This document shows, piece by piece, positions 1 through 52,228 of a stretch of 64,000 nucleotides of DNA (position 1 is its first letter; each line of letters starts with the position of its first letter). This DNA is from Acidobacteriota bacterium (GTDB lineage: Bacteria; Acidobacteriota; Terriglobia; Terriglobales; SCQP01). Where the stretch lies: assembly GCA_021789895.1 (NCBI GenBank), contig JAJYIU010000019.1, forward strand, positions 2,523 to 66,522, given 5' to 3'. Under the pieces are notes generated by a model that saw only the letters and a list, made by a program, of their open reading frames with translations, made no database searches and had not been told where the DNA came from. The position numbers and the translations under genes are program-made.

Positions 1-330
1 CAATCACCAGAAGTTCACATTACGGCCAAACTCGGTATGGTGATGCACAGTATCGAACGCCCATTGCTTGATCGAGCGCAGTCCGCGGCCTTAACGGCTG
101 CCGGGCACGCACATAAATACTTACGCTCCTTGCAGCGAATCATCAACCCGCAATCGCGAAACAGGCGGTGAATCCGCTTGTGGTTCACCGTCGCCCCATC
201 TCATTACACCAAAACTTGCAAGCGCCGATAGCCGAACCGCGGACGCCTCCCGGCCAGCTGCACCAATCGGCTCCGCAATAGCTCGTCATTGCGGCGAGGC
301 GAGCAGCATTACCCCGCAGGCATGCCGCTC
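1..330 (-). pseudogene. IS3-family transposase (OrfB N-terminal region) remnant, broken by stops/frameshift and cut by the window edge
   Basis: Reverse-strand translation reads ELLRSRLVQLAGRRPRFGYRRLQVLV**DGATVNHKRIHRLFRDCGLMIRCKERKYL. After a frame change it reads IKQWAFDTVHHHTEFGRNVNFW*. The PRFGYRR, VNHKRxxRL and QxWxxD motifs are typical of IS3-family OrfB. The six-frame track has no intact ORF here. Confidence 0.5.
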
Positions 331-478
331 GCAGAAGGCGTACTCCTCTGGTGCAACTATCTCATTTTTACTCCGCAGGCCCCTTATCTGATTCAATTTT
401 ATATGCTTATGTATATTTAACGATTGCATTGAACGTCTTTCATGTCTCATTTCACTCCGGGCGTTGCGTCAGCAGACG

Positions 479-2260
479 TCAGCGGCTGTACTGCACCGCA
501 TATTGTCCCAGGCGCCAGACCTGGCGGCCGCCGACATAGGTCGCCAGCACGCGCACGTTCCAAATCTGCCGGGGCGGAATGTGGAAGAGGTTGTGGTCGA
601 GAATGATGAAATCGGCGTCCTTGCCGGGAGTGAGCGAGCCCAGCCGTTTTTCCTCGAAGCCGGCGTAGGCCGAGCCCATGGTGTAGTCGTAAATAGCCTG
701 TGCCAGCGGAATTTTCTGGCGCGGGAACCAGCCGTTGGGGTGCTTGCCATCGAGCGTGGCGCGGGTGACGGCGGCATAGATGCCATAGAGCGGATTCAGC
801 GGCGCCACCGGCCAGTCGGTGCCGAATGCCAGCCGGGCGCCGTGCCGCATCAGGCTTCCGTACGCATAGCTGGTTTTAGCGCGCTCGTAGCCGATGCGCT
901 TTTCCACCCAGCGGCCGTCGTCAATCGCGTGGTATGGCTGGACCGAGGCGATGACGTGCAGTTGGGCAAAGCGCGGGATATCGGCAGCGATCAGATGCTG
1001 GGCGTGCTCGATGCGGAAGCGGCGGTCCTTAGACCCGTCCAGGCGCTCCACCTTCTGGAAAAAGTCGAGCACCATGTGGTTGGCCGCATCGCCGATGGCG
1101 TGGACGCAGACCTGCAATCCGGCGCGGTCGGCCCCCAAAATACGGCGGTAGAGCTTGGCCGGCGGCTGCGCGTCCGGGGCCAGCAGGCCGCGCCAGTTCG
1201 GATTGGAGGGCGGATTATCGCGATAGGGCTGGAACAGATACGCCGTGCGCGAGCCGATGGCGCCGTCGGCGAAGGCCTTCATCGAGCCCACGGTAATCCA
1301 GGGCCCGCCAAAGCCGCGGCGCACGCCCATGGCCGCCCAGTGCCGCCAGAGCGCGAGCGGCTGGCGCACGTAAAAGCGCGCGGTCAGCTCGCGGCGGGCG
1401 AGCAGCCGGGCATAGATACGGGGCGCCTGGGGATAGGACAGGTCCATGGATTGAATCGTGGTCACGCCCAGGGCGGCGGCATGGCGCAGGCCAATGCGCG
1501 CGATGCGCATGCGCTCGGCCAACGATGGCGAAGGAATGACGCGCGCCACCAGGTCCTGGGCGGCGTCCTTGACAATGCCGGTGGGCCGTCCTTGCGCGTC
1601 ATGGACGATGACGCCGCCTTTGGGGGTGGGCGTGGCGCGGCTGATATGCGCCAGCTTCAGCGCCAGCGAGTTGGCCAGTCCCATATGGCCGTCGTAACGG
1701 TTGACATACACCGGATGGCGCCGGGTGCAGCCGTCAATCATCCAGCGCGTCGGCCAGCGCGCCGGCTGCCAGCGTTGCTCGTCCCAGTTGCCGCCGGTGA
1801 TCCACTCGCCCGGTGGGAGGGTGCGGGCGTAGGCGCAGATCTTGCGGGCGAATTCGGCCGCGGAGCGGGTGATGCGGAGATCCACCGAGCTGAGATCGTA
1901 GGCGCCGGCGAAAAAATGCACATGGCCGTCAATAAAGCCGGGCAGCACCAGGCGCCCGTGGGCATTGACGATGCGCGTGCGCGGACCGATCCAGGGGCGG
2001 ATTTGGGCGTCGCTGCCCACCGCCAGGATGCGTCCATGCCAGATGGCCATTGCCTGCGCCCGCGGCCGCCGGGCATCCATGGTGCGCAGATGCCCGTGCA
2101 GCACGACTTCATCGGCCGCCGGCCGGCCGAGCGGCGAAAACAATCCGGCGCTGGGCCGCCGCGCGGGGCGCTGCGCCGCCGCGCCGGCCGCCGGCAGAAG
2201 GCTGGCTAACAGGAAACAGCAGAGCGAGTGCGGGCGAATGCGTAGCCGCTCGAAACCCAT
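479..2260 (-). CDS. Amidohydrolase-3 family metal-dependent hydrolase with signal peptide
   Basis: ORF 479..2332. Motifs PGFIDGHVHF, VHAIGDAAN, FGTDWPVAPLNP. Start moved to ATG 2260 (MGFERLRIRPHSLCCFLLASLLPAAGAAAQ), which gives a signal peptide. Confidence 0.85.
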   Translation of the reverse strand: MGFERLRIRPHSLCCFLLASLLPAAGAAAQRPARRPSAGLFSPLGRPAADEVVLHGHLRTMDARRPRAQAMAIWHGRILAVGSDAQIRPWIGPRTRIVNAHGRLVLPGFIDGHVHFFAGAYDLSSVDLRITRSAAEFARKICAYARTLPPGEWITGGNWDEQRWQPARWPTRWMIDGCTRRHPVYVNRYDGHMGLANSLALKLAHISRATPTPKGGVIVHDAQGRPTGIVKDAAQDLVARVIPSPSLAERMRIARIGLRHAAALGVTTIQSMDLSYPQAPRIYARLLARRELTARFYVRQPLALWRHWAAMGVRRGFGGPWITVGSMKAFADGAIGSRTAYLFQPYRDNPPSNPNWRGLLAPDAQPPAKLYRRILGADRAGLQVCVHAIGDAANHMVLDFFQKVERLDGSKDRRFRIEHAQHLIAADIPRFAQLHVIASVQPYHAIDDGRWVEKRIGYERAKTSYAYGSLMRHGARLAFGTDWPVAPLNPLYGIYAAVTRATLDGKHPNGWFPRQKIPLAQAIYDYTMGSAYAGFEEKRLGSLTPGKDADFIILDHNLFHIPPRQIWNVRVLATYVGGRQVWRLGQYAVQYSR

Positions 2261-2442: not shown

Positions 2443-3699
2443 TTATTGCGGAGTATAGTATCTCACCTGTGGCTGAACAAAAAACGCCTGGTTAGCCGGC
2501 ACGATATTCACATGCGCCCCGATGTTGTTGATCAGCGGGTGAGCGCCATTGCCGTCCGGACGCACCGTGGCCACATGTCCATGCGGCTGGTGCGGTTGCA
2601 CGGCGATGACCAGCCGCCCCTGATTGGCCAGTTGCTGGGCTACCTGTGCATTCACTTCCCGGTAGCGATCGCTGGCGGCAAGCTGTACCGCAATATCGTC
2701 GGCCAGTGCGGGCGCTCCATGCTGCGTCAGCGGAGCCAGCGGCGCGCCCACGGCGCGGGCAATGCGATAGGTGGCTATATTACAAAAGGTTTCTCCGCCG
2801 TGAGGATGCAAAGCGGGGTCGTTGCGCGCCGCATCCTGGGCATTCATCAGATTGGCCACTGCCGGCGAAGGCGCCGGCGCGGATGCTGGTGCCGATGCCG
2901 GCGCGGACGCCGGCGCAGACGCCGGGGCAGAGGCGGGAGAGGAAGCTGGCGCGGAGGCGGGCGCGGCGGTCACGTCATATTGATATAAATCGCTTCCCTT
3001 CATGATGCGCTTGAGTTTGGCGCCGTAATTGGGATCGGTGGCATAGACTCCCGTCAACGCGTCGGCAAAGCCATCGGGGTTGTTTTCCAGGCTGCGGGCG
3101 CGCCCATAATAATGCGAAGTCGCCAGCAGCCGCCCATGCTGGTCGAACGCATCCGCCAGCGAGACAAATTTGCGGAAACGCGCCGTGATGGTAATCCATT
3201 GACCGTCTTTATATTCCCGGGTTTTGGTTTCGACGAACGGCTGCCCGCCCACGGCTTTGATTCCGAAAGGATTGTTGCTGCCCGCCGGCATGTGCCGCCC
3301 CCAGCCGCTCTCCAGCGCCCACTGGGCCAGGGTCACCGCCGCCGGAATCTGCCATTTCTTGTCCGCCGCCTGGGCGGCGCCAATGACATTCAACGGGACC
3401 GGTCCAACCCCGGCCGAGGGCATCGCGCCGGCCGATCTCGCCGGCGCTTCCCCGGCCAGATAGCGAAACGTGGGACCGGTCGGAACAATCCTTCCATCCG
3501 GATGGGGCATGCGCAAGCCGCGGCTTTGCACCGCGTCAATGGCGCCGATCGTCAATGGCCCGCAAAGCCCATCCAACACCAACGGCCGCAGCGGCACCGG
3601 CAGCTTGGCGTTGATCAACCGCTGCACCGTGAGTACGTCATCGTGCCGGTTGGCGCAATCGCGGCCGACAGAACCCGATATGCTGGCTGGATCCGGCAT
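2443..3699 (-). CDS. Multidomain peptidoglycan hydrolase: PG_binding_1-like domain, glucosaminidase (FlgJ-type) domain, (PAS)n linker, C-terminal putative Cys/His hydrolase domain; no signal peptide
   Basis: N-terminus VLTVQRLINAKL...LDGLCGPLTIGAIDAVQ (PG-binding-like). AQWALESGWGRHMPAGSNNPFGIKA (glucosaminidase motif). APASAPASSPASAPASAPASAPASAPASAPAPSP linker. C-terminus GETFCNIATYRIA ... HGHVATVRPDG (Cys...His pair). Confidence 0.8.
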   Translation of the reverse strand: MPDPASISGSVGRDCANRHDDVLTVQRLINAKLPVPLRPLVLDGLCGPLTIGAIDAVQSRGLRMPHPDGRIVPTGPTFRYLAGEAPARSAGAMPSAGVGPVPLNVIGAAQAADKKWQIPAAVTLAQWALESGWGRHMPAGSNNPFGIKAVGGQPFVETKTREYKDGQWITITARFRKFVSLADAFDQHGRLLATSHYYGRARSLENNPDGFADALTGVYATDPNYGAKLKRIMKGSDLYQYDVTAAPASAPASSPASAPASAPASAPASAPASAPAPSPAVANLMNAQDAARNDPALHPHGGETFCNIATYRIARAVGAPLAPLTQHGAPALADDIAVQLAASDRYREVNAQVAQQLANQGRLVIAVQPHQPHGHVATVRPDGNGAHPLINNIGAHVNIVPANQAFFVQPQVRYYTPQ

Positions 3700-3882
3700 A
3701 GATTTTCAATGCCCGGGCGGTTTAAAAAGCGCTATCCATGACTTGAGCTACGGCGGGCGGCAATCTGGCGCAGACACCACTTCCCGCACCCGGCGCCTTG
3801 CATCGCGGCTTGCAGATGCCCTGGATTGAGCGACGGCGCGTCGGCACCGCGGCGTCCGGGGTACTGCAACTTGGGCGACAGG

Positions 3883-4512
3883 TTAAGGCGTCGGCGTCGT
3901 GCTAAGTTGCTTTTGCGCTTTCTGCGTCAGCACCTTCACATCATCGTTGACGATCGTCTGGATGAGGGTCGCCTGCGATTGAATGATGTTCGTGAACAGG
4001 CTCAAGACCTGGCTCATCCCGCCCGGCATCTGGTCCTGCACCGCATGCACCGAAACCTGCATGCTGTAGGTGTCGTCAACAACGCTGCCAAACTGATAGG
4101 TGTTCTTATCCGTCACAGTCACCGATAAGCTGACGAACCAATTGGCCGAGGCCGAAGCGGTAATTGCAAAATCGTTGCTGAACGAATTAGAAGAGGTGCT
4201 ATGCAGTTGCACGTTAAAGTTGATGCTCATATCCTCGACCCGAATGTAAGGGATCGGGATGATGGTCAACAGCGGGACCTTGATCTCGGTATAATCCGAC
4301 AAGCCGCCTAAATTTTTATTCTGCAGCACCTGCGAAAAATCGAAGCTCACGGCCTGCAGCTTGGGCGGATTGTCCTTGGTAAACGCGAAACTCTGAATGA
4401 AGTTGGTGGTGGTGTTCGCCGCCATGGCTTGCGCGTTTACGACTGCAACCAGCGGACCTCCGATAATATCTTTAAAATCGAGTTGAGATAATTCTCTTCC
4501 CTGAGTTAGCAT
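3883..4512 (-). CDS. DUF2589-like protein (family name from memory; function unknown), Ser/Thr/Asn-rich, beta-rich
   Basis: 209 aa. N-terminal helix LSQLDFKDIIGGPLVAVVNAQAMAA, then VPLLTIIPIPYIRVEDMSINFNVQL. Strong SD (GGGAGGAAG) 6 nt upstream of the ATG. Many A/T-ending codons in a GC3-rich genome. Confidence 0.8.
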   Translation of the reverse strand: MLTQGRELSQLDFKDIIGGPLVAVVNAQAMAANTTTNFIQSFAFTKDNPPKLQAVSFDFSQVLQNKNLGGLSDYTEIKVPLLTIIPIPYIRVEDMSINFNVQLHSTSSNSFSNDFAITASASANWFVSLSVTVTDKNTYQFGSVVDDTYSMQVSVHAVQDQMPGGMSQVLSLFTNIIQSQATLIQTIVNDDVKVLTQKAQKQLSTTPTP

Positions 4513-4539
4513 GATCAGCTTCCTCCCTTCTCAGGCGCC

Positions 4540-4571
4540 TCTATAGCAACATACTTTCCCCTCACTGTCAA
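4540..4571 (-). promoter_or_regulatory. Putative sigma70-type promoter for the DUF2589-like gene: TTGACA ... TGcTATAGA
   Basis: Minus strand has TTGACA (4571..4566) and extended -10 TGCTATAGA (4548..4540). The spacer to TATAGA is 20 nt, which is long. Lies in the 100-bp gap after the TPR-GT stop. Confidence 0.3.
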
Positions 4572-4612
4572 GCAAGATAACACTCGAAATTCCAATGACT
4601 TAGATGCTGTAC

Positions 4613-6712
4613 TTACGAGGCGGAATTTTTTCGCCGCAGCCGTTCCTGCAACTCGCCGGCCATGGCGGCAAACACCGCCGGCCACTGGCGCGGGCCGGGC
4701 TGGCGAAACAGCCGCAGGGTGGGGTACCAGGGGGAATCCCGGCGATCGGCAAACCAACGCCAGTCTGGCGTGTAACTCACCGCCAGCCAGACCGGACGGC
4801 CCAACGCGCCGGCCAGGTGGGCGACGGCGGAATCACTGGTGACGATCAAGTCAAGATTCATCATCGCCGCCGCCTTTTCGGCAAACGGCAAGCCCAGGTC
4901 GACAAGGGGCCAATCCTGCGCCACCTCGGAGATTTGTTCGCGGCCATAGCCGGTTTGCAGGCTGAATAGCCGGACGCCAGCCAAGCGGGCCAAGGGCGCA
5001 AATTGGGCCAGCGGGATGGAGCGGATCCGGTCTCCTTTGAACTGCGGGTTGCCCTGCCAGGCCAGGCCGAGCTTGAAGCCGGGCTGCACGCCAAGCCGGG
5101 CTTTCCATTCCGCCACCCGGTCCGGATCGGGCCGCAGGTAAGGAACGGCGGCAGGGAGATTATCGAGGGTCGTTTCCAACAGCCCCGGCAGGTTCATCAG
5201 GGGGGCATGGTAATCGAACCAAGGCACGTTTTGCGTCTGGTCGAGCACCAGATCTACGCCCTGGCATCCGGCAAACAGTTTGCGCAAAGGGCCAGGACAC
5301 AGCAGCAGTACGCGCCCGGCGCGCAGTTTTAGCGGCGCTGCGAAGCGTACGAACTGGATGCTATCCCCGAAGCCCTGTTCCGCGTGGAGCAGGATGCAGC
5401 GGCCATGCAGGCTTTCGCCCTGCCAAAGCGGTTGGGGAAAACGGTCGGGTGAGACATCCTTGAAGCGCCAGCGCCATTCCCACTCTTTCCAGCCTTCGCT
5501 ATAGCGCCCCTGCAGCAGCAGATGCATGCCCAGATTGACGTGGATTTCGGCATTTCCGGGCTGAATTTCCAGGGCGCGGCGGAAACAATGCTCGGCGTCG
5601 GCGAGCGCCGGGCCGCGGCGCAGCAGCGCTTGAACATGCAAGACGCCGCCGAGATTGTTCCAGGCATCGAGAAAGTCGGGCTGGCGTTGCAGCGCGAAGC
5701 GGAGGTGCGATTCGGCCTCGTCGTAGCGCTCCTGCAGCAGCAAAGCGTGGCCCAGGTTGCAATGCGTCGCGGGACGCTCCGGAGCCAACTGCAGGGCGCG
5801 TTGCAGGCAGGCCAGCGATTCCTTCCAGCGGCGCCGATCGGAGAGGACGATGCCCAGCAGATCGAGCGCTTCCACGCAATCCGGCCGGCGGCGCAACACC
5901 GAGCGGAGACACGCTTCCGCCTCCGGCAAGCGCCGCAGTTCGCGAAGCGCCTTGGCGAGATTCAATTGCGCTGCGTTGAACTCCGGCGACAGCTCCAACG
6001 CCCGGCGGAAATAAGGCTCCGCCTGCGTGGTTTTACCCATCGCTTGCAACTGCGCGCCAAGATTGTTTTGGGCCTCGCAGGAATCCGGCTGCAACTCGGC
6101 CAGGCGCTGGAAATGGCGCAAGGCGGCTTCCGGACGGCCGAGCGTCCGCAGCAGATGGCTCATGCGGTCATGCGCTTCGGCGCAGTCGGGCTGCAATTCG
6201 AGCACCGACTGGTAGGCGGACAGCGCCGGCTCGGCGCGGCCCATCGAATCCAGGCATATCCCCAACCCCATCCAGGCCGGGACGAACCCGGGACGCAATT
6301 TTAGGGCGCGGCGATACACCGCCGCAGCGCGGCGCAGCATGCCGCGCTCGCGAAGCAGGTTGGCCAGGTTACAGTGCGCCTCTGCGAAATCGGCCTCGAG
6401 ACGAACCGCCTCGCGGTAGCAGGCGGCAGCGCGATCCACCTGTCCCAGCTTGCGATACACCACCCCCAAATCGTTGTGATAGCTGGCCACCCGGGACTGG
6501 AGTTGAATCGCGCGGCCAAGGAGCTGGACGGCGTTCTCGGGCGAGCCGAGTTGAGCGGCAATCAGCCCGAGTAGATGCAGCGCGGGGTGATTGCGCGGAT
6601 CCGCGGCTAAAATCTGCGCGCACAACTCGGCAGCCGGCTGCCAGCGCCCCGCCCGATGCAAGTGCACGGCCTGAGCCAAAAGCCCGTCTAAAGCTGTATC
6701 CATCGCCTCCAT
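4613..6712 (-). CDS. TPR-repeat protein fused to a GT9 (heptosyltransferase-type) glycosyltransferase domain
   Basis: ORF 4613..6964, start moved to MEAMDTALDG (ATG 6712) downstream of the Sel1 gene stop. About 400 aa of TPR repeats (AEAHCNLANLL, AEAHDRMSHLL, CEAQNNLGAQL ...). C-terminal GT9-like motifs EQGFGDSIQFVRF, LGLAWQGNPQFKGDRIRSIPL, VTSDSAVAHLAGALGRPVW. Confidence 0.8.
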   Translation of the reverse strand: MEAMDTALDGLLAQAVHLHRAGRWQPAAELCAQILAADPRNHPALHLLGLIAAQLGSPENAVQLLGRAIQLQSRVASYHNDLGVVYRKLGQVDRAAACYREAVRLEADFAEAHCNLANLLRERGMLRRAAAVYRRALKLRPGFVPAWMGLGICLDSMGRAEPALSAYQSVLELQPDCAEAHDRMSHLLRTLGRPEAALRHFQRLAELQPDSCEAQNNLGAQLQAMGKTTQAEPYFRRALELSPEFNAAQLNLAKALRELRRLPEAEACLRSVLRRRPDCVEALDLLGIVLSDRRRWKESLACLQRALQLAPERPATHCNLGHALLLQERYDEAESHLRFALQRQPDFLDAWNNLGGVLHVQALLRRGPALADAEHCFRRALEIQPGNAEIHVNLGMHLLLQGRYSEGWKEWEWRWRFKDVSPDRFPQPLWQGESLHGRCILLHAEQGFGDSIQFVRFAAPLKLRAGRVLLLCPGPLRKLFAGCQGVDLVLDQTQNVPWFDYHAPLMNLPGLLETTLDNLPAAVPYLRPDPDRVAEWKARLGVQPGFKLGLAWQGNPQFKGDRIRSIPLAQFAPLARLAGVRLFSLQTGYGREQISEVAQDWPLVDLGLPFAEKAAAMMNLDLIVTSDSAVAHLAGALGRPVWLAVSYTPDWRWFADRRDSPWYPTLRLFRQPGPRQWPAVFAAMAGELQERLRRKNSAS

Positions 6713-6795
6713 CCCGAAACGGCCGCTGATGGCTGCGGCGTTATCGCCAGCGCAGGAACCGCGGCGAGAAGGCGCCGGCCCGGCTGGCGTGCGTA

Positions 6796-8019
6796 TCAGG
6801 TCGCGTCCGCTCCCAAGCCGCTCTCTTGCAGCCGTTGGATGGCCAGGCTGGCATTCTGCGCCAGCGCGGCGCGCCGGGGATCGTTTTGGGTAAGCGCATA
6901 GCAGCGATGAAACCAAGCCAGGGCCTGCTGCCGGTCCGGCGCGGTGCCAAGGCCGTGGGCGCATTGGTAGCCCAGGTTATATTGCGCCTCGGCGCAATGC
7001 TGGCTCGCCGCCGCCTGATTCCAGCGCAAGGCGGCATCGTAGTCCTGCAACTCGTGAAGATAGATCTGGCCGAGCAGAAACTGCGCCTGCTGAGCTCCCT
7101 GCAACGCTGCTTTTTGCAGCCAGTACACCGCCTGCTGCAGATCGCGTTCCAGGCGCGACCCCTCGTATAGCACCGAGCCCAGCAGAATCTGCGCCTCAAG
7201 CAAACCTGCTTCCGCGGCGCGGCACATGCCATCCCGAAACTTCTCCGCATCCGGGGCGGCGCCCAGGCCCTGGGCATAGATCAAGCCAAGATAATAATCC
7301 GCTGGCGGATGGCCTTTCGCCGCGGCGCGTTCCAGCCACTCCCGGCTGCGGAGGGGGTCGGCGGCGACGCCCCGGCCCGACAGATAGCATTTGCCGAGCT
7401 CGAACTCAGCCAGCATGAAGCCTTCGCCGGCGGCTTGGGTCAGCCAATGAACCGCTTGCACCTCGTTGCGCTCGACGCCTTTACCCTGCAGATACAACAG
7501 CGCCAGCGAATATTGGGCTTCGCAGATACCCTTTTCCGCCGCCCGCCGATACCAGCGTTGGGCCTGGCCGAGATCCGCCTCCGTGCCGATTCCATCTTCG
7601 TAGAGCCGGCCCAGCGGGGCTGCCGCTTTCACGAAATCGTCTTCGGCGGCTGCGCGCAGCCATTGAAAAGCCTGCGCCTCGTCTTTTTCTACTCCCGTGC
7701 CGGAAAGCAGCAGCGAGGCCAGATTGATGCGCGCCTGCGGATGTCCGTGCTGCGCCGCGCGTTGATACCAAGCCGCAGCCTGAGTCAGATCCTGGGGCAG
7801 CGCCGCGCCGAATTGACTGCACTGGCCCAGCATAAACTCGGCCTCGCGCTCCCCGCCGGCCGCCGCCCGTTTCCACCAGCAGACGGCTTGGGCGCGATCC
7901 TCGGGTTCCGGCCCGCGGCTGAACAGCAGCAACCCCAGCGCGTATTGCGCCTTGGCATTGCCGGCTTCCGCGGCTTGCGCCAGTTGTTCCAGATCGTCGT
8001 GGTGCTCATTCGCGTTCAT
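6796..8019 (-). CDS. Sel1-like repeat (SLR) protein
   Basis: 407 aa with at least 8 SLR units (AQYALGLLLF, AEFMLGQC, AQYSLALLYLQGKGVERN, AEFELGKCYLSGRGV, ADYYLGLIYAQGLG, AQILLGSVLYEGSRLERD, AQFLLGQIY, AQYNLGYQCAHGLG). No signal peptide. Confidence 0.85.
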   Translation of the reverse strand: MNANEHHDDLEQLAQAAEAGNAKAQYALGLLLFSRGPEPEDRAQAVCWWKRAAAGGEREAEFMLGQCSQFGAALPQDLTQAAAWYQRAAQHGHPQARINLASLLLSGTGVEKDEAQAFQWLRAAAEDDFVKAAAPLGRLYEDGIGTEADLGQAQRWYRRAAEKGICEAQYSLALLYLQGKGVERNEVQAVHWLTQAAGEGFMLAEFELGKCYLSGRGVAADPLRSREWLERAAAKGHPPADYYLGLIYAQGLGAAPDAEKFRDGMCRAAEAGLLEAQILLGSVLYEGSRLERDLQQAVYWLQKAALQGAQQAQFLLGQIYLHELQDYDAALRWNQAAASQHCAEAQYNLGYQCAHGLGTAPDRQQALAWFHRCYALTQNDPRRAALAQNASLAIQRLQESGLGADAT

Positions 8020-8036
8020 GCGCTGCGATGGCCTTT

Positions 8037-8828
8037 TTAGCTTCCCAAGGTGTATATTTTCTGGCTATTTTTCTCACTCACGATCCACCGGAGATCGGAG
8101 GGATTGATGGTGATCTTGATCTTATTCAACAACGCGGTGTCCAGCTTTCCGAGATCCGCCGTACCCACAAGCACGTTCAGTGCCATCGGCGCCGGTGCGC
8201 CCGGCGCCTGCTGCGCTCCCTGCAGCGAGCGCAGCATTGCCGCGATCCTGGACTCGATCAGTTTTTGCAGGGGAACGGTCTCGGACTCCGGCTTCACCCC
8301 CTGCGCCAGCCAGAAGGGTGAGGGCTTTACCAGGAGGAGTAGCAGCGGGGCCACTGCCGGTTTCTGCTCCTCTGCGGCAGTTTCATAAAAGTAATTTTGT
8401 ACGCTCAAGGCAAGACTGTGCGCCAGGTCCACAGGATCGGATGCCGGCCGGGAAAGGATCTGCGCAAAACGCTGACTCATGCTTGCCAGGCCTGCCTTCC
8501 AGCGTGCCTGGAGCGGCGCATTCTGGCTGAAGTAATCTTTGAACTCCGGCTGGCTGGGAAAACTGCTCAGTAAATCCTGTAGTTGATAGGTAAGGTTTTT
8601 TTGCACTTCGTCATCTTCGAGGAATGAAGCCGATTCCAGCTTGGAAGCGACCCCGAAGTTCAACTCCATCTCGACGTCGCGCAACTGCATCCGCGGCACC
8701 GGAAAGCCTTTCAACAGCTCATTTTGCAAATAGCCTTCGGCAATGTGAACCGAGGCCCCGTCGCTCATCTGGCGCGCCATCGCCAGTTGTTGCATCAAGG
8801 CTCCGATAAAGGACTCGAGGGTGATCAT
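8037..8828 (-). CDS. DUF2589-like paralog (longer, 263 aa), function unknown
   Basis: N-terminus MITLESFIGALMQQLAMARQM ... GFPVPRMQLRDVEMELNFGV parallels the helix and PIPYIRVEDMSINFNV segment of 3883..4512. Lies 17 bp upstream of the Sel1 gene. Confidence 0.75.
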   Translation of the reverse strand: MITLESFIGALMQQLAMARQMSDGASVHIAEGYLQNELLKGFPVPRMQLRDVEMELNFGVASKLESASFLEDDEVQKNLTYQLQDLLSSFPSQPEFKDYFSQNAPLQARWKAGLASMSQRFAQILSRPASDPVDLAHSLALSVQNYFYETAAEEQKPAVAPLLLLLVKPSPFWLAQGVKPESETVPLQKLIESRIAAMLRSLQGAQQAPGAPAPMALNVLVGTADLGKLDTALLNKIKITINPSDLRWIVSEKNSQKIYTLGS

Positions 8829-8950
8829 TTAGAGTATCTCCCCTGGACCGCTTAATTTTTCCAACACTATACTAAACTTGGCCACAGAATGCATTTCCTG
8901 CTGCACCTGGATGCGGGAAGCAGCGCTTGCAGTAGTAGAGGCTATCTCAC
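8829..8950 (-). pseudogene. Relic of a CarB C-terminal coding end (second, decayed copy)
   Basis: Minus-strand frame reads EIASTTASAASRIQVQQEMHSVAKFSIVLEKLSGPGEIL*. The real carB end is [34 protein letters not shown]. The nucleotide block gcatttcctgc-gcacctg is shared (8891.. vs 9127..). The relic stop TAA (8831..8829) directly abuts ATG 8828. Confidence 0.55.
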
Positions 8951-9083
8951 GATTGAGGTTTTCAGGCGGATTTAGATGAATTTATAAAAGCCATTGACGC
9001 TTCTTTTAGATAGCTTTAAAAATGCTTCCCCTTCTAGTCTTGCAAATGCTTTACGTTTTTTCATCCCTTGCCCGCCATGCCCT

Positions 9084-12404
<3,321 letters not shown>

Positions 12405-12506
12405 AGAGCATCCTCGAGCCAGGCATCCGCGGGGCGAAAACGCCGGCGGGGGAAATAAAGAAAAATTTTAAACAGGAATGGGCGCCGGGAAAGCAGACAG
12501 GCCGGC

Positions 12507-52151: not shown

Positions 52152-52228
<77 letters not shown>

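Follow-up and report, generated by a model that had tools for sequence, protein, structure and literature searches.

Described relatives and layout of the block

The protein families PF11655 (DUF2589) and PF27375 are catalogued without a function, and in Archaeoglobus fulgidus the short genes AF0414-AF0417 have been reported as a 'DUF2589 related' cluster (PMC3949148). Here we describe a block of five minus-strand open reading frames (ORFs), g1 to g5, in a 64,000-nucleotide (nt) stretch of DNA (contig JAJYIU010000019.1, positions 2,523-66,522), which is referred to below as the window. The block resembles both families, with g4 being a full-length PF11655 protein and close homologues of g1 carrying PF27375. 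The archaeal cluster matches the paired-paralog cassette to which we assign g1-g4, whereas the window differs from it by a Sel1-repeat gene instead of the third gene, an extra gene with tetratricopeptide repeats (TPR) and a glycosyltransferase-like (GT-like) domain, a permuted gene order and a peptidoglycan (PG) hydrolase as a neighbor.

Three other described systems resemble single genes of the block. FlmG of Caulobacter is a cytoplasmic flagellin O-glycosyltransferase, whose substrate self-assembles, bears Ser/Thr residues and is bound by the TPR domain of the enzyme (PMC7591256). Compared by architecture and not by sequence, g3 and FlmG both have N-terminal TPR and a C-terminal GT-like domain (FlmG ~280 amino acids, aa). 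However, the GT9 likeness of g3 is below threshold, its putative substrate is DUF2589 and not flagellin, and the window has no linked sugar-biosynthesis genes. FlgJ has a GH73 glucosaminidase homologous to that of g5, but g5 lacks the rod-binding N-terminal domain, falls below the TIGR02541 cut-off and has no flagellar context. With the PG-hydrolase effectors of type VI secretion system (T6SS) and Rhs islands, g5 shares an N-terminal domain (39-44% identity) and the lack of a signal peptide, whereas their catalytic domains are different and no T6SS or immunity gene was seen near g5.

Based on the comparison of related loci, we hold with high confidence that g1-g4 are a conserved unit, a rearranged and embellished copy of a widespread cassette, which had been missed by the initial annotation. 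According to this analysis, the cassette consists of two obligately paired paralogs and a helical protein as its third member; in one clade, Sel1 and TPR/GT-like accessories have been swapped in, and signal-less PG hydrolases repeatedly lie next to the cassette. The module is tightly co-inherited in both bacteria and archaea, and a bare DUF entry becomes a testable system. The literature searched mentioned DUF2589 only in passing, in two papers, contained no described system that matched the block, the cassette, the paralog pair or the variants, and gave nothing relevant on AF0414 and PF27375. This was consistent with the earlier statement that no described system has such a composition, as was the lack of a PADLOC match. 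PF11655, PF27375 and the A. fulgidus cluster were known before; for the cassette, the paralog pair and the variants, no prior description was found.

The genes of the block and the one spacer with marked features are as follows:

8037-8828, minus strand: g1, 263 aa, DUF2589 partner, predicted distant paralog
6796-8019, minus strand: g2, 407 aa, Sel1-repeat protein
4613-6712, minus strand: g3, 699 aa, TPR protein with a GT9-like C-terminal domain
4513-4612, minus strand: g3-g4 spacer, with a strong ribosome-binding site (GGGAGGAAG) and a TTGACA...TATAGA promoter-like stretch
3883-4512, minus strand: g4, 209 aa, DUF2589 (PF11655)
2443-3699, minus strand: g5, 418 aa, signal-less PG hydrolase

The ORF listing bore out the five ORFs as first annotated, at these coordinates and with gaps of 17, 83, 100 and 183 base pairs (bp) for g1-g2, g2-g3, g3-g4 and g4-g5, respectively. 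The g3 frame is open as far as 6964, and a start at 6703-6712 is favored by the orthologues (690-722 aa) and by the public gene call (696 aa). A consensus scan found no promoter on the minus strand in the g3-g4 spacer and no terminators in the spacers of the block, and RNA folding of the g3-g4 and g4-g5 spacers revealed no significant structure and no terminator. The spacer may possibly contain a g4-specific promoter. No signal peptide was visible by eye in g1-g4 or in g5, and no transmembrane-like segments were found in the DUF2589, partner or third-gene families, in agreement with the earlier view that none of the five proteins has a recognizable signal peptide.

The widespread cassette and its paralog pair

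A two-motif scan of 185,579 species genomes detected the DUF2589/partner module in at least 325 of them, and 80 genome loci with DUF2589 motifs, 10 of which are archaeal, were examined. A hidden Markov model (HMM) of the partner matched the +1 gene, on the same strand as DUF2589, in 56 loci, mostly with gaps of 8-230 bp. In several high-GC loci the partner gene was hidden by shadow-ORF artefacts, and a six-frame analysis was used to remove them; in this re-analysis the partner adjoined DUF2589 in all of the 77 loci with enough sequence for the evaluation. The third family, a helical protein of ~190 aa with no Pfam match, came next in 68 loci, and the order DUF2589, partner, helical protein is referred to as type A. 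The pairwise identities of the three families correlate with one another (r = 0.87-0.92), and therefore the three families have been inherited as a unit. DUF2589 is the most conserved member, with a mean identity of 55%, compared to 26-28% for the partner and the third family. The invariant core is DUF2589 and its obligate partner.

The core cassette was present in archaea and in many bacterial phyla, including Actinomycetota, Clostridia and Chloroflexota, and it is sometimes plasmid-borne. Its immediate neighbors are not conserved, since 118 Pfam families were found among 108 neighbors, and they showed no enrichment in defence genes. A defence-island context was dropped, with flanks not enriched in defence genes and no match in PADLOC. 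A phage origin was dropped as well, because DUF2589 was found in only 7 of 2.9 million viral contigs and in one phage record. A Sf6-terminase-like match of the third family occurred in only 2 of 55 members and was judged spurious. Two other arrangements were observed among the loci. The Bacteroidales loci L040 and L047 (10001-12583) have two tandem DUF2589 paralogs ahead of the partner and the third gene, and five viral contigs (L091-L095) and a Fulvitalea plasmid (L098 5959-8433) have DUF2589-partner-DUF2589 without the third gene.

The family assignments of the two paralogs in the window differ in strength. The match of g4 to PF11655 scored 105.1 bits with an E-value of 6.1e-30 (gathering cut-off 23 bits) and covered positions 2-153 of the 154 in the model. 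The protein has 135 homologues, contains the motifs PIPYIRV and HAVQDxMPGG, and carries a Ser/Thr-rich, charge-poor loop at aa ~105-145 and a STTPTP tail. The initial annotation had described both g4 and g1 as DUF2589-like, which is clear for g4, whereas g1 matched no model in Pfam or NCBIfam (PF11655 was absent even at E <= 10) and is related by remote homology only. Precomputed matches to PF27375 'AF_0414' are present on the g1 homologues P0126 and P0127, and a weak one on the 250-aa protein of L010. The Pfam scan returned PF27375 neither for g1 nor for that L010 protein (5237-5989), and the model is possibly missing from the scan library. An exhaustive profile search (E <= 0.001) gave a g1 family of at least 770 clusters at 50% identity; the two relatives obtained by a word-indexed search were a sensitivity artefact.

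The N-terminal homology of g1 and g4 was claimed initially to be clear, based on a helix and a P-x-P segment that both proteins contain. There was no BLASTP match between the two, and hhalign with g1 profiles of three or five sequences gave a probability of less than 1%, with the P-x-P segment always being the top-scoring one. When a 62-sequence g1 profile was aligned with a 77-sequence DUF2589 profile, the probability was 65% with a P-value of 6e-5 over 67 columns. The aligned pairs were g1 3-31 with g4 12-40, which is the N-terminal helix, and g1 32-69 with g4 76-112, which is the P-x-P strand, so that DUF2589 has an insertion of ~40 residues between the helix and the strand. Reciprocal HMM searches gave cross-matches in the same register, in which the partner HMM matched many DUF2589 proteins (best 7.5e-8) and the DUF2589 HMM matched eight partners. 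Hence, the deep profiles recovered both of the named segments, although 'clear' was an overstatement given the blank BLASTP and shallow-profile results. Judged from these alignments, the homology is real but remote and the two proteins are distant paralogs. The N-terminal helices had also been described as amphipathic, which did not hold: their hydrophobic moment is 0.15-0.29, and they are instead rich in small residues.

Structure-based searches were carried out with AlphaFold2 monomer models, which are of low confidence (predicted local distance difference test, pLDDT, of 66 for g4 and 59 for g1). Foldseek searches of the two models against the PDB gave nothing at E <= 0.001, and PDB sequence and profile searches with DUF2589, the partner and the third gene were empty or gave chance-level matches. 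A search of the viral library BFVD found only unnamed DUF2589-like viral proteins. The HMMs of PADLOC-DB v2 did not match g1 or g4, and PHROGs did not match the core proteins. Thus, the Pfam and Foldseek checks proposed with the initial annotation connected the DUF2589-like proteins to no well-characterized family, and the only match was that of g4 to PF11655.

The type B variant and a possible mechanism

The description of g2 as a cytoplasmic-looking Sel1-repeat protein was well supported, with eight Sel1 repeats matching PF08238 (210.8 bits, E = 5.5e-64) and no visible signal peptide. The gene starts 17 bp past g1, in the slot that is occupied by the helical third gene in the common cassette, and the third-family HMM had no match in the window or in the type B loci. 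Sel1 orthologues were found right after the partner in L001, L005, L008, L010, L012-L016, L101, L104 and L108, and the replacement of the third gene by Sel1 was observed in L008, L012-L016 and L108. We define type B as the loci with a DUF2589 protein at least ~45% identical to g4, in which Sel1 follows the partner by 0-85 bp and replaces the third gene.

A subclade of type B adds a protein of ~190 aa, named X190 here, and a TPR/GT-like protein. The canonical order, DUF2589-partner-Sel1-X190-TPR/GT, was observed in a Caulobacter metagenome-assembled genome (MAG; L015). Peat-metagenome relatives and a 1.5-Mb contig (L001/L100, L005/L101, L104, L010) have the circular permutation partner-Sel1-X190-TPR/GT-DUF2589. 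The order in the window is partner-Sel1-TPR/GT-DUF2589, without X190, and places DUF2589 and its partner 3.5 kb apart on the same strand. X190 has been lost here and in a Nitrosomonadales MAG (L011), and no remnant of it was found in the window. It is Arg/Ser/Gly-rich, has no family match and ends with '...FAVRDVSGxxLRFESA...HWSRDPRxL'; a relationship to the third family was ruled out by hhalign. X190 is located as follows:

L001 5269-5847: X190
L005 2199-2774: X190
L010 7254-7814: X190
L015 9240-9830: X190
L108 14810-15439: X190

The linkage of Sel1 and TPR/GT to the paralogs was kept in the independent lineages L001/L100, L005/L101, L104, L010, L011 and L015. The gene-neighborhood check therefore showed that DUF2589 and its partner have stayed linked to the Sel1 gene and the TPR/GT-like gene, although the order was rearranged, in at least six lineages that are independent of one another. 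This result bears directly on whether the block is a functional unit at all, or five unrelated genes that happen to share a strand within a genomic island. Unrelated genes would fit with the island features of the block and with the gaps of 83-183 bp, which leave room for separate promoters. However, four of the five genes are linked across those lineages and the DUF2589-partner pairing is universal, which makes the absence of any unit scarcely credible. Synteny refutes it for g1-g4; for g5 alone it is possible.

The claim that g3 is a TPR protein fused to a GT9 domain was borne out in its first half. The TPR repeats extend over ~430 aa (TPR_1, E = 1.9e-60) and are followed by a C-terminal domain of ~270 aa. 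The match of this domain to PF01075 (GT9) scored 21.3 bits, below the cut-off of 22 bits, and covered ~33 residues in the region of the nucleotide-sugar-binding motif. The same motif region scored 17.5 bits in the L010 orthologue, and TIGR02193 matched the domain with an E-value of 0.11. The domain is 57-64% identical across L001, L010 and L011. Searches of the PDB with the domain, using the sequence and a four-sequence profile (E <= 10), found nothing relevant, which left the suggested analogy to the autotransporter heptosyltransferases (BAHT/TibC) without support. The TPR/GT-bearing type B modules are flanked by extra glycosyltransferase genes (GT2, and one with a GT4-like C-terminus) and by a neprosin-family peptidase (L010 1715-4114 and 10770-13042; L001 8868-9308).

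We consider it somewhat probable that g1-g4 act as a type B version of the cassette, in which the paralogs would form a cytoplasmic hetero-oligomer with repeat proteins as adaptors and with possible glycosylation, and in which g5 lies outside the module. Our confidence is low for the mechanism and high for the anatomy of the cassette. The N-terminal helix and the P-x-P strand common to the two paralogs would mediate their co-assembly into a hetero-oligomer or polymer in the cytoplasm. Proteins with helical repeats, i.e., the third gene product, Sel1 and TPR, would serve as adaptors or assembly chaperones. By analogy to FlmG, the TPR arm of g3 might bind DUF2589, and g3 might glycosylate the Ser/Thr-rich, charge-depleted loop or tail of this protein. 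The hydrolase g5 shares the island and was perhaps recruited secondarily. The oligomer is proposed because the pairing is obligatory, the helix-strand module is common to both paralogs, DUF2589 is strongly conserved, the monomer models are poor and the third slot is always occupied by a helical or repeat protein.

The loop of DUF2589 differs between the two groups of type B loci. Charged residues make up a fraction of 0.04-0.12 of this variable loop in the five loci with TPR/GT, but 0.17-0.27 where TPR/GT is missing (six type B loci). The loop of the TPR/GT subclade is also Ser/Thr-rich, and type B proteins have tails rich in Ser, Thr and Pro. The charge depletion and Ser/Thr richness of the loop are compatible with a cytoplasmic O-glycosylation by a TPR-guided transferase such as is known for FlmG. 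Further points in favor of glycosylation are the FlmG-like combination of TPR and a GT-like domain and the other glycosyltransferase genes beside the L010 module.

Several observations weigh against a type B assembly of this kind. With 21.3 bits, the GT9 assignment misses the threshold of 22 bits, and it has no PDB counterpart. Since the five loci belong to one subclade, the association of loop charge with TPR/GT may go back to just one event in their ancestor. The Foldseek and PDB searches were blank, so that no structural homologue points to any function, and the poor AlphaFold2 models make the predicted architecture uncertain. A promoter within the g3-g4 spacer is conceivable, and the operon is a prediction. 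Finally, signal-less PG hydrolases recur in L059 and L040/L047, and treating g5 as unrelated may be wrong.

The peptidoglycan hydrolase and the genomic setting

The last gene of the block had been described as a hydrolase of three modules, for PG binding, glucosaminidase activity and a Cys/His domain. The glucosaminidase (aa 108-235) was confirmed as a GH73/FlgJ-type domain by PF01832 (93.4 bits, E = 2.2e-26) and by FlgJ-type hydrolases in the PDB (E = 5.5e-17 to 4e-13). The PG-binding module received transitive support only: aa 7-86 are PG-binding-like and share 49% identity with the N-terminal part of a PG_binding_1/VanY-like protein, also signal-less, in L059, an Anaerolineae MAG, where the gene for it lies directly upstream (-1, same strand) of a type A cassette. 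The C-terminal Cys/His module matched no family, and its PDB search was empty or at chance level. A low-complexity (P-A-S-A)n linker, encoded by short tandem DNA repeats at window positions 2860-2931 (aa ~245-283), splits the glucosaminidase from the C-terminal domain.

The N-terminal domain of g5 has relatives elsewhere. It follows the pattern 'SVGxxGxNxxxDVxxVQxxLN...DGxxGxxT..AI..FQ...PDGR' and shares 39-44% identity with the N-terminal parts of two proteins that are encoded in T6SS/Rhs islands on plasmids. In Sagittula, a papain-like protein with this type of N-terminus is encoded right after tssEFGH, and in Pseudoalteromonas it heads a TIGR02594 protein in a Rhs/polymorphic-toxin island. 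The genes of proteins with the g5-type N-terminal domain are located as follows:

L109 6977-7780: protein with a g5-type N-terminal domain
L110 6986-7804: protein with a g5-type N-terminal domain

Since this N-terminus is shared with signal-less hydrolases of T6SS/Rhs islands, g5 resembles a signal-less PG hydrolase of the effector type. Effectors that are exported and target PG may generally be marked by this domain. No immunity-like ORF, i.e., a small secreted one, was found next to g5, and the ten largest window ORFs include no T6SS gene.

The initial annotation regarded the five genes as one unit that ends in a dedicated murein hydrolase, and proposed a glycosylated, self-assembling envelope structure in which g5 would be needed for insertion through the sacculus, as FlgJ is for flagella. 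The FlgJ-type glucosaminidase of g5, the TPR/GT-like gene and the Ser/Thr-rich segments of DUF2589 are consistent with such a structure. However, phmmer searches with each module of g5 over the related loci recovered only the copies on its own contig, except for the N-terminal module, which also found the L059 protein, and no other related locus contains a g5-like gene. The FlgJ equivalog model TIGR02541 scored 75.2 bits against a cut-off of 193, with an alignment to the glucosaminidase half alone, and therefore g5 has no rod-binding N-terminal half. The core cassette is found in archaea and in monoderm bacteria, with Actinomycetota, Clostridia and Chloroflexota among its hosts. Its families have no signal peptides or transmembrane segments, and the flanks show no conserved genes for secretion or assembly. 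These results largely refuted an envelope structure that requires murein remodeling, which we consider very unlikely, and a five-gene unit with a dedicated hydrolase was not supported. With moderate confidence, g5 is an adjacent add-on and not a conserved member of the cassette.

Signal-less PG hydrolases are nevertheless found beside the cassette in three independent lineages, namely g5, L059 and L040/L047 (PG_binding_1 plus muramidase). In L008, a PG_binding_1 plus SH3 protein is encoded at -3, and its N-terminus may carry a signal or a membrane segment. The recurrence involves only ~5% of the loci; by judgement, it suggests a frequency above chance. One explanation, close to the second reading of the initial annotation, is a module for lysis, release or conflict, in which the DUF2589/partner assembly would respond to a trigger, for example phage infection or stress, by permeabilizing or remodeling the cell boundary, or would aid the exit of signal-less effectors, and in which PG hydrolases were repeatedly attached for lysis or for action on neighboring cells. 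The three lineages have hydrolases with differing catalytic domains (glucosaminidase, VanY-like and muramidase), a fourth PG-binding protein is present at -3 in L008, the N-terminal domains of g5 and L059 are 49% identical, and domains of this type head proteins in T6SS/Rhs islands. The patchy distribution of the cassette suggests horizontal transfer, with plasmids, a few viral contigs and a low-GC3 island as its settings (GC3, the G/C content at third codon positions), and both the source contig and the Fulvitalea plasmid carry HipA toxin genes nearby. On the other hand, the three families have no transmembrane helices, there is no PADLOC match and the flanks are not enriched in defence genes, a PG enzyme is nearby in just ~4 of ~75 independent loci, and the archaeal hosts have no murein. 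In addition, no immunity-like gene adjoins g5, and none of the ten largest ORFs in the window is a T6SS gene. We therefore consider this explanation improbable and keep the cytoplasmic hetero-oligomer, with g5 outside the module, as the favored one.

A broader proposal would be that the triad is a new bacterial and archaeal system for the regulated cytoplasmic assembly of two paralogous subunits, acting in lysis, effector release or conflict or in an unseen intracellular structure, with TPR-guided glycosylation and a coupled murein hydrolase in the version of the window. We put this forward tentatively and regard it as rather doubtful in this full form. If a new self-assembling or conflict system is indeed represented, it would be of broad interest; if the cassette instead encodes a pair of proteins with a minor structural or stress role, no more than a useful annotation would have been gained.

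The setting of the block is that of a low-GC3 island beside carB. The preference for A/T-ending codons had been attributed to g1 and g4. Both do have a low GC3, but all five genes have a GC3 of 0.69-0.77, compared to 0.835 for carB and 0.824 for the downstream amidohydrolase gene, and therefore the codon anomaly is a mark of the whole block. The features that border the block are:

8890-8921, no strand assigned: degenerate duplicate of the carB 3' end, 32 nt, 88% identity to 9127-9158
479-2332: amidohydrolase gene, between the IS3 fragment and the block
15-188, minus strand: IS3-family transposase fragment, to which the ORF 'MNHKRIHRLFRDCGLMIRCKERKY...' at L006 14325-14498 maps

The carB copy sits within the AT-rich, 255-bp carB-g1 spacer and suggests an insertion or recombination boundary, at which an island may have been inserted or replaced at the end of carB. 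The block had been placed between an IS3 remnant and a recombination scar at carB. Both features are present, but the amidohydrolase gene intervenes between the IS3 fragment and the block. More IS3-like fragments are found beyond the start of the window (L006 16145-16700), and the IS3 motifs include 'NHKRIHRLFR' and 'KHIEAQMISAL'.

A HipA_2 toxin-like gene is located past the start of the window on the source contig (L006 15240-16142), and in the Fulvitalea plasmid (L098) a HipA pair lies ~4.5 kb from the DUF2589 genes. The long ORFs opposite carB (8994-12458, plus strand, 1154 aa) and opposite the amidohydrolase gene (464-2209, plus strand, 581 aa) are shadow ORFs, which are artefacts of high GC content and not genes. 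The sole tRNA reported for the remaining window is a tRNA-Met at 52152-52228. Window positions 22521-59786 code for sigma-54, ABC exporter, GH35 beta-galactosidase, arabinofuranosidase, BNR/sortilin-like and MutS-like proteins, a gene content that is compatible with a polysaccharide-degrading soil or peat bacterium.

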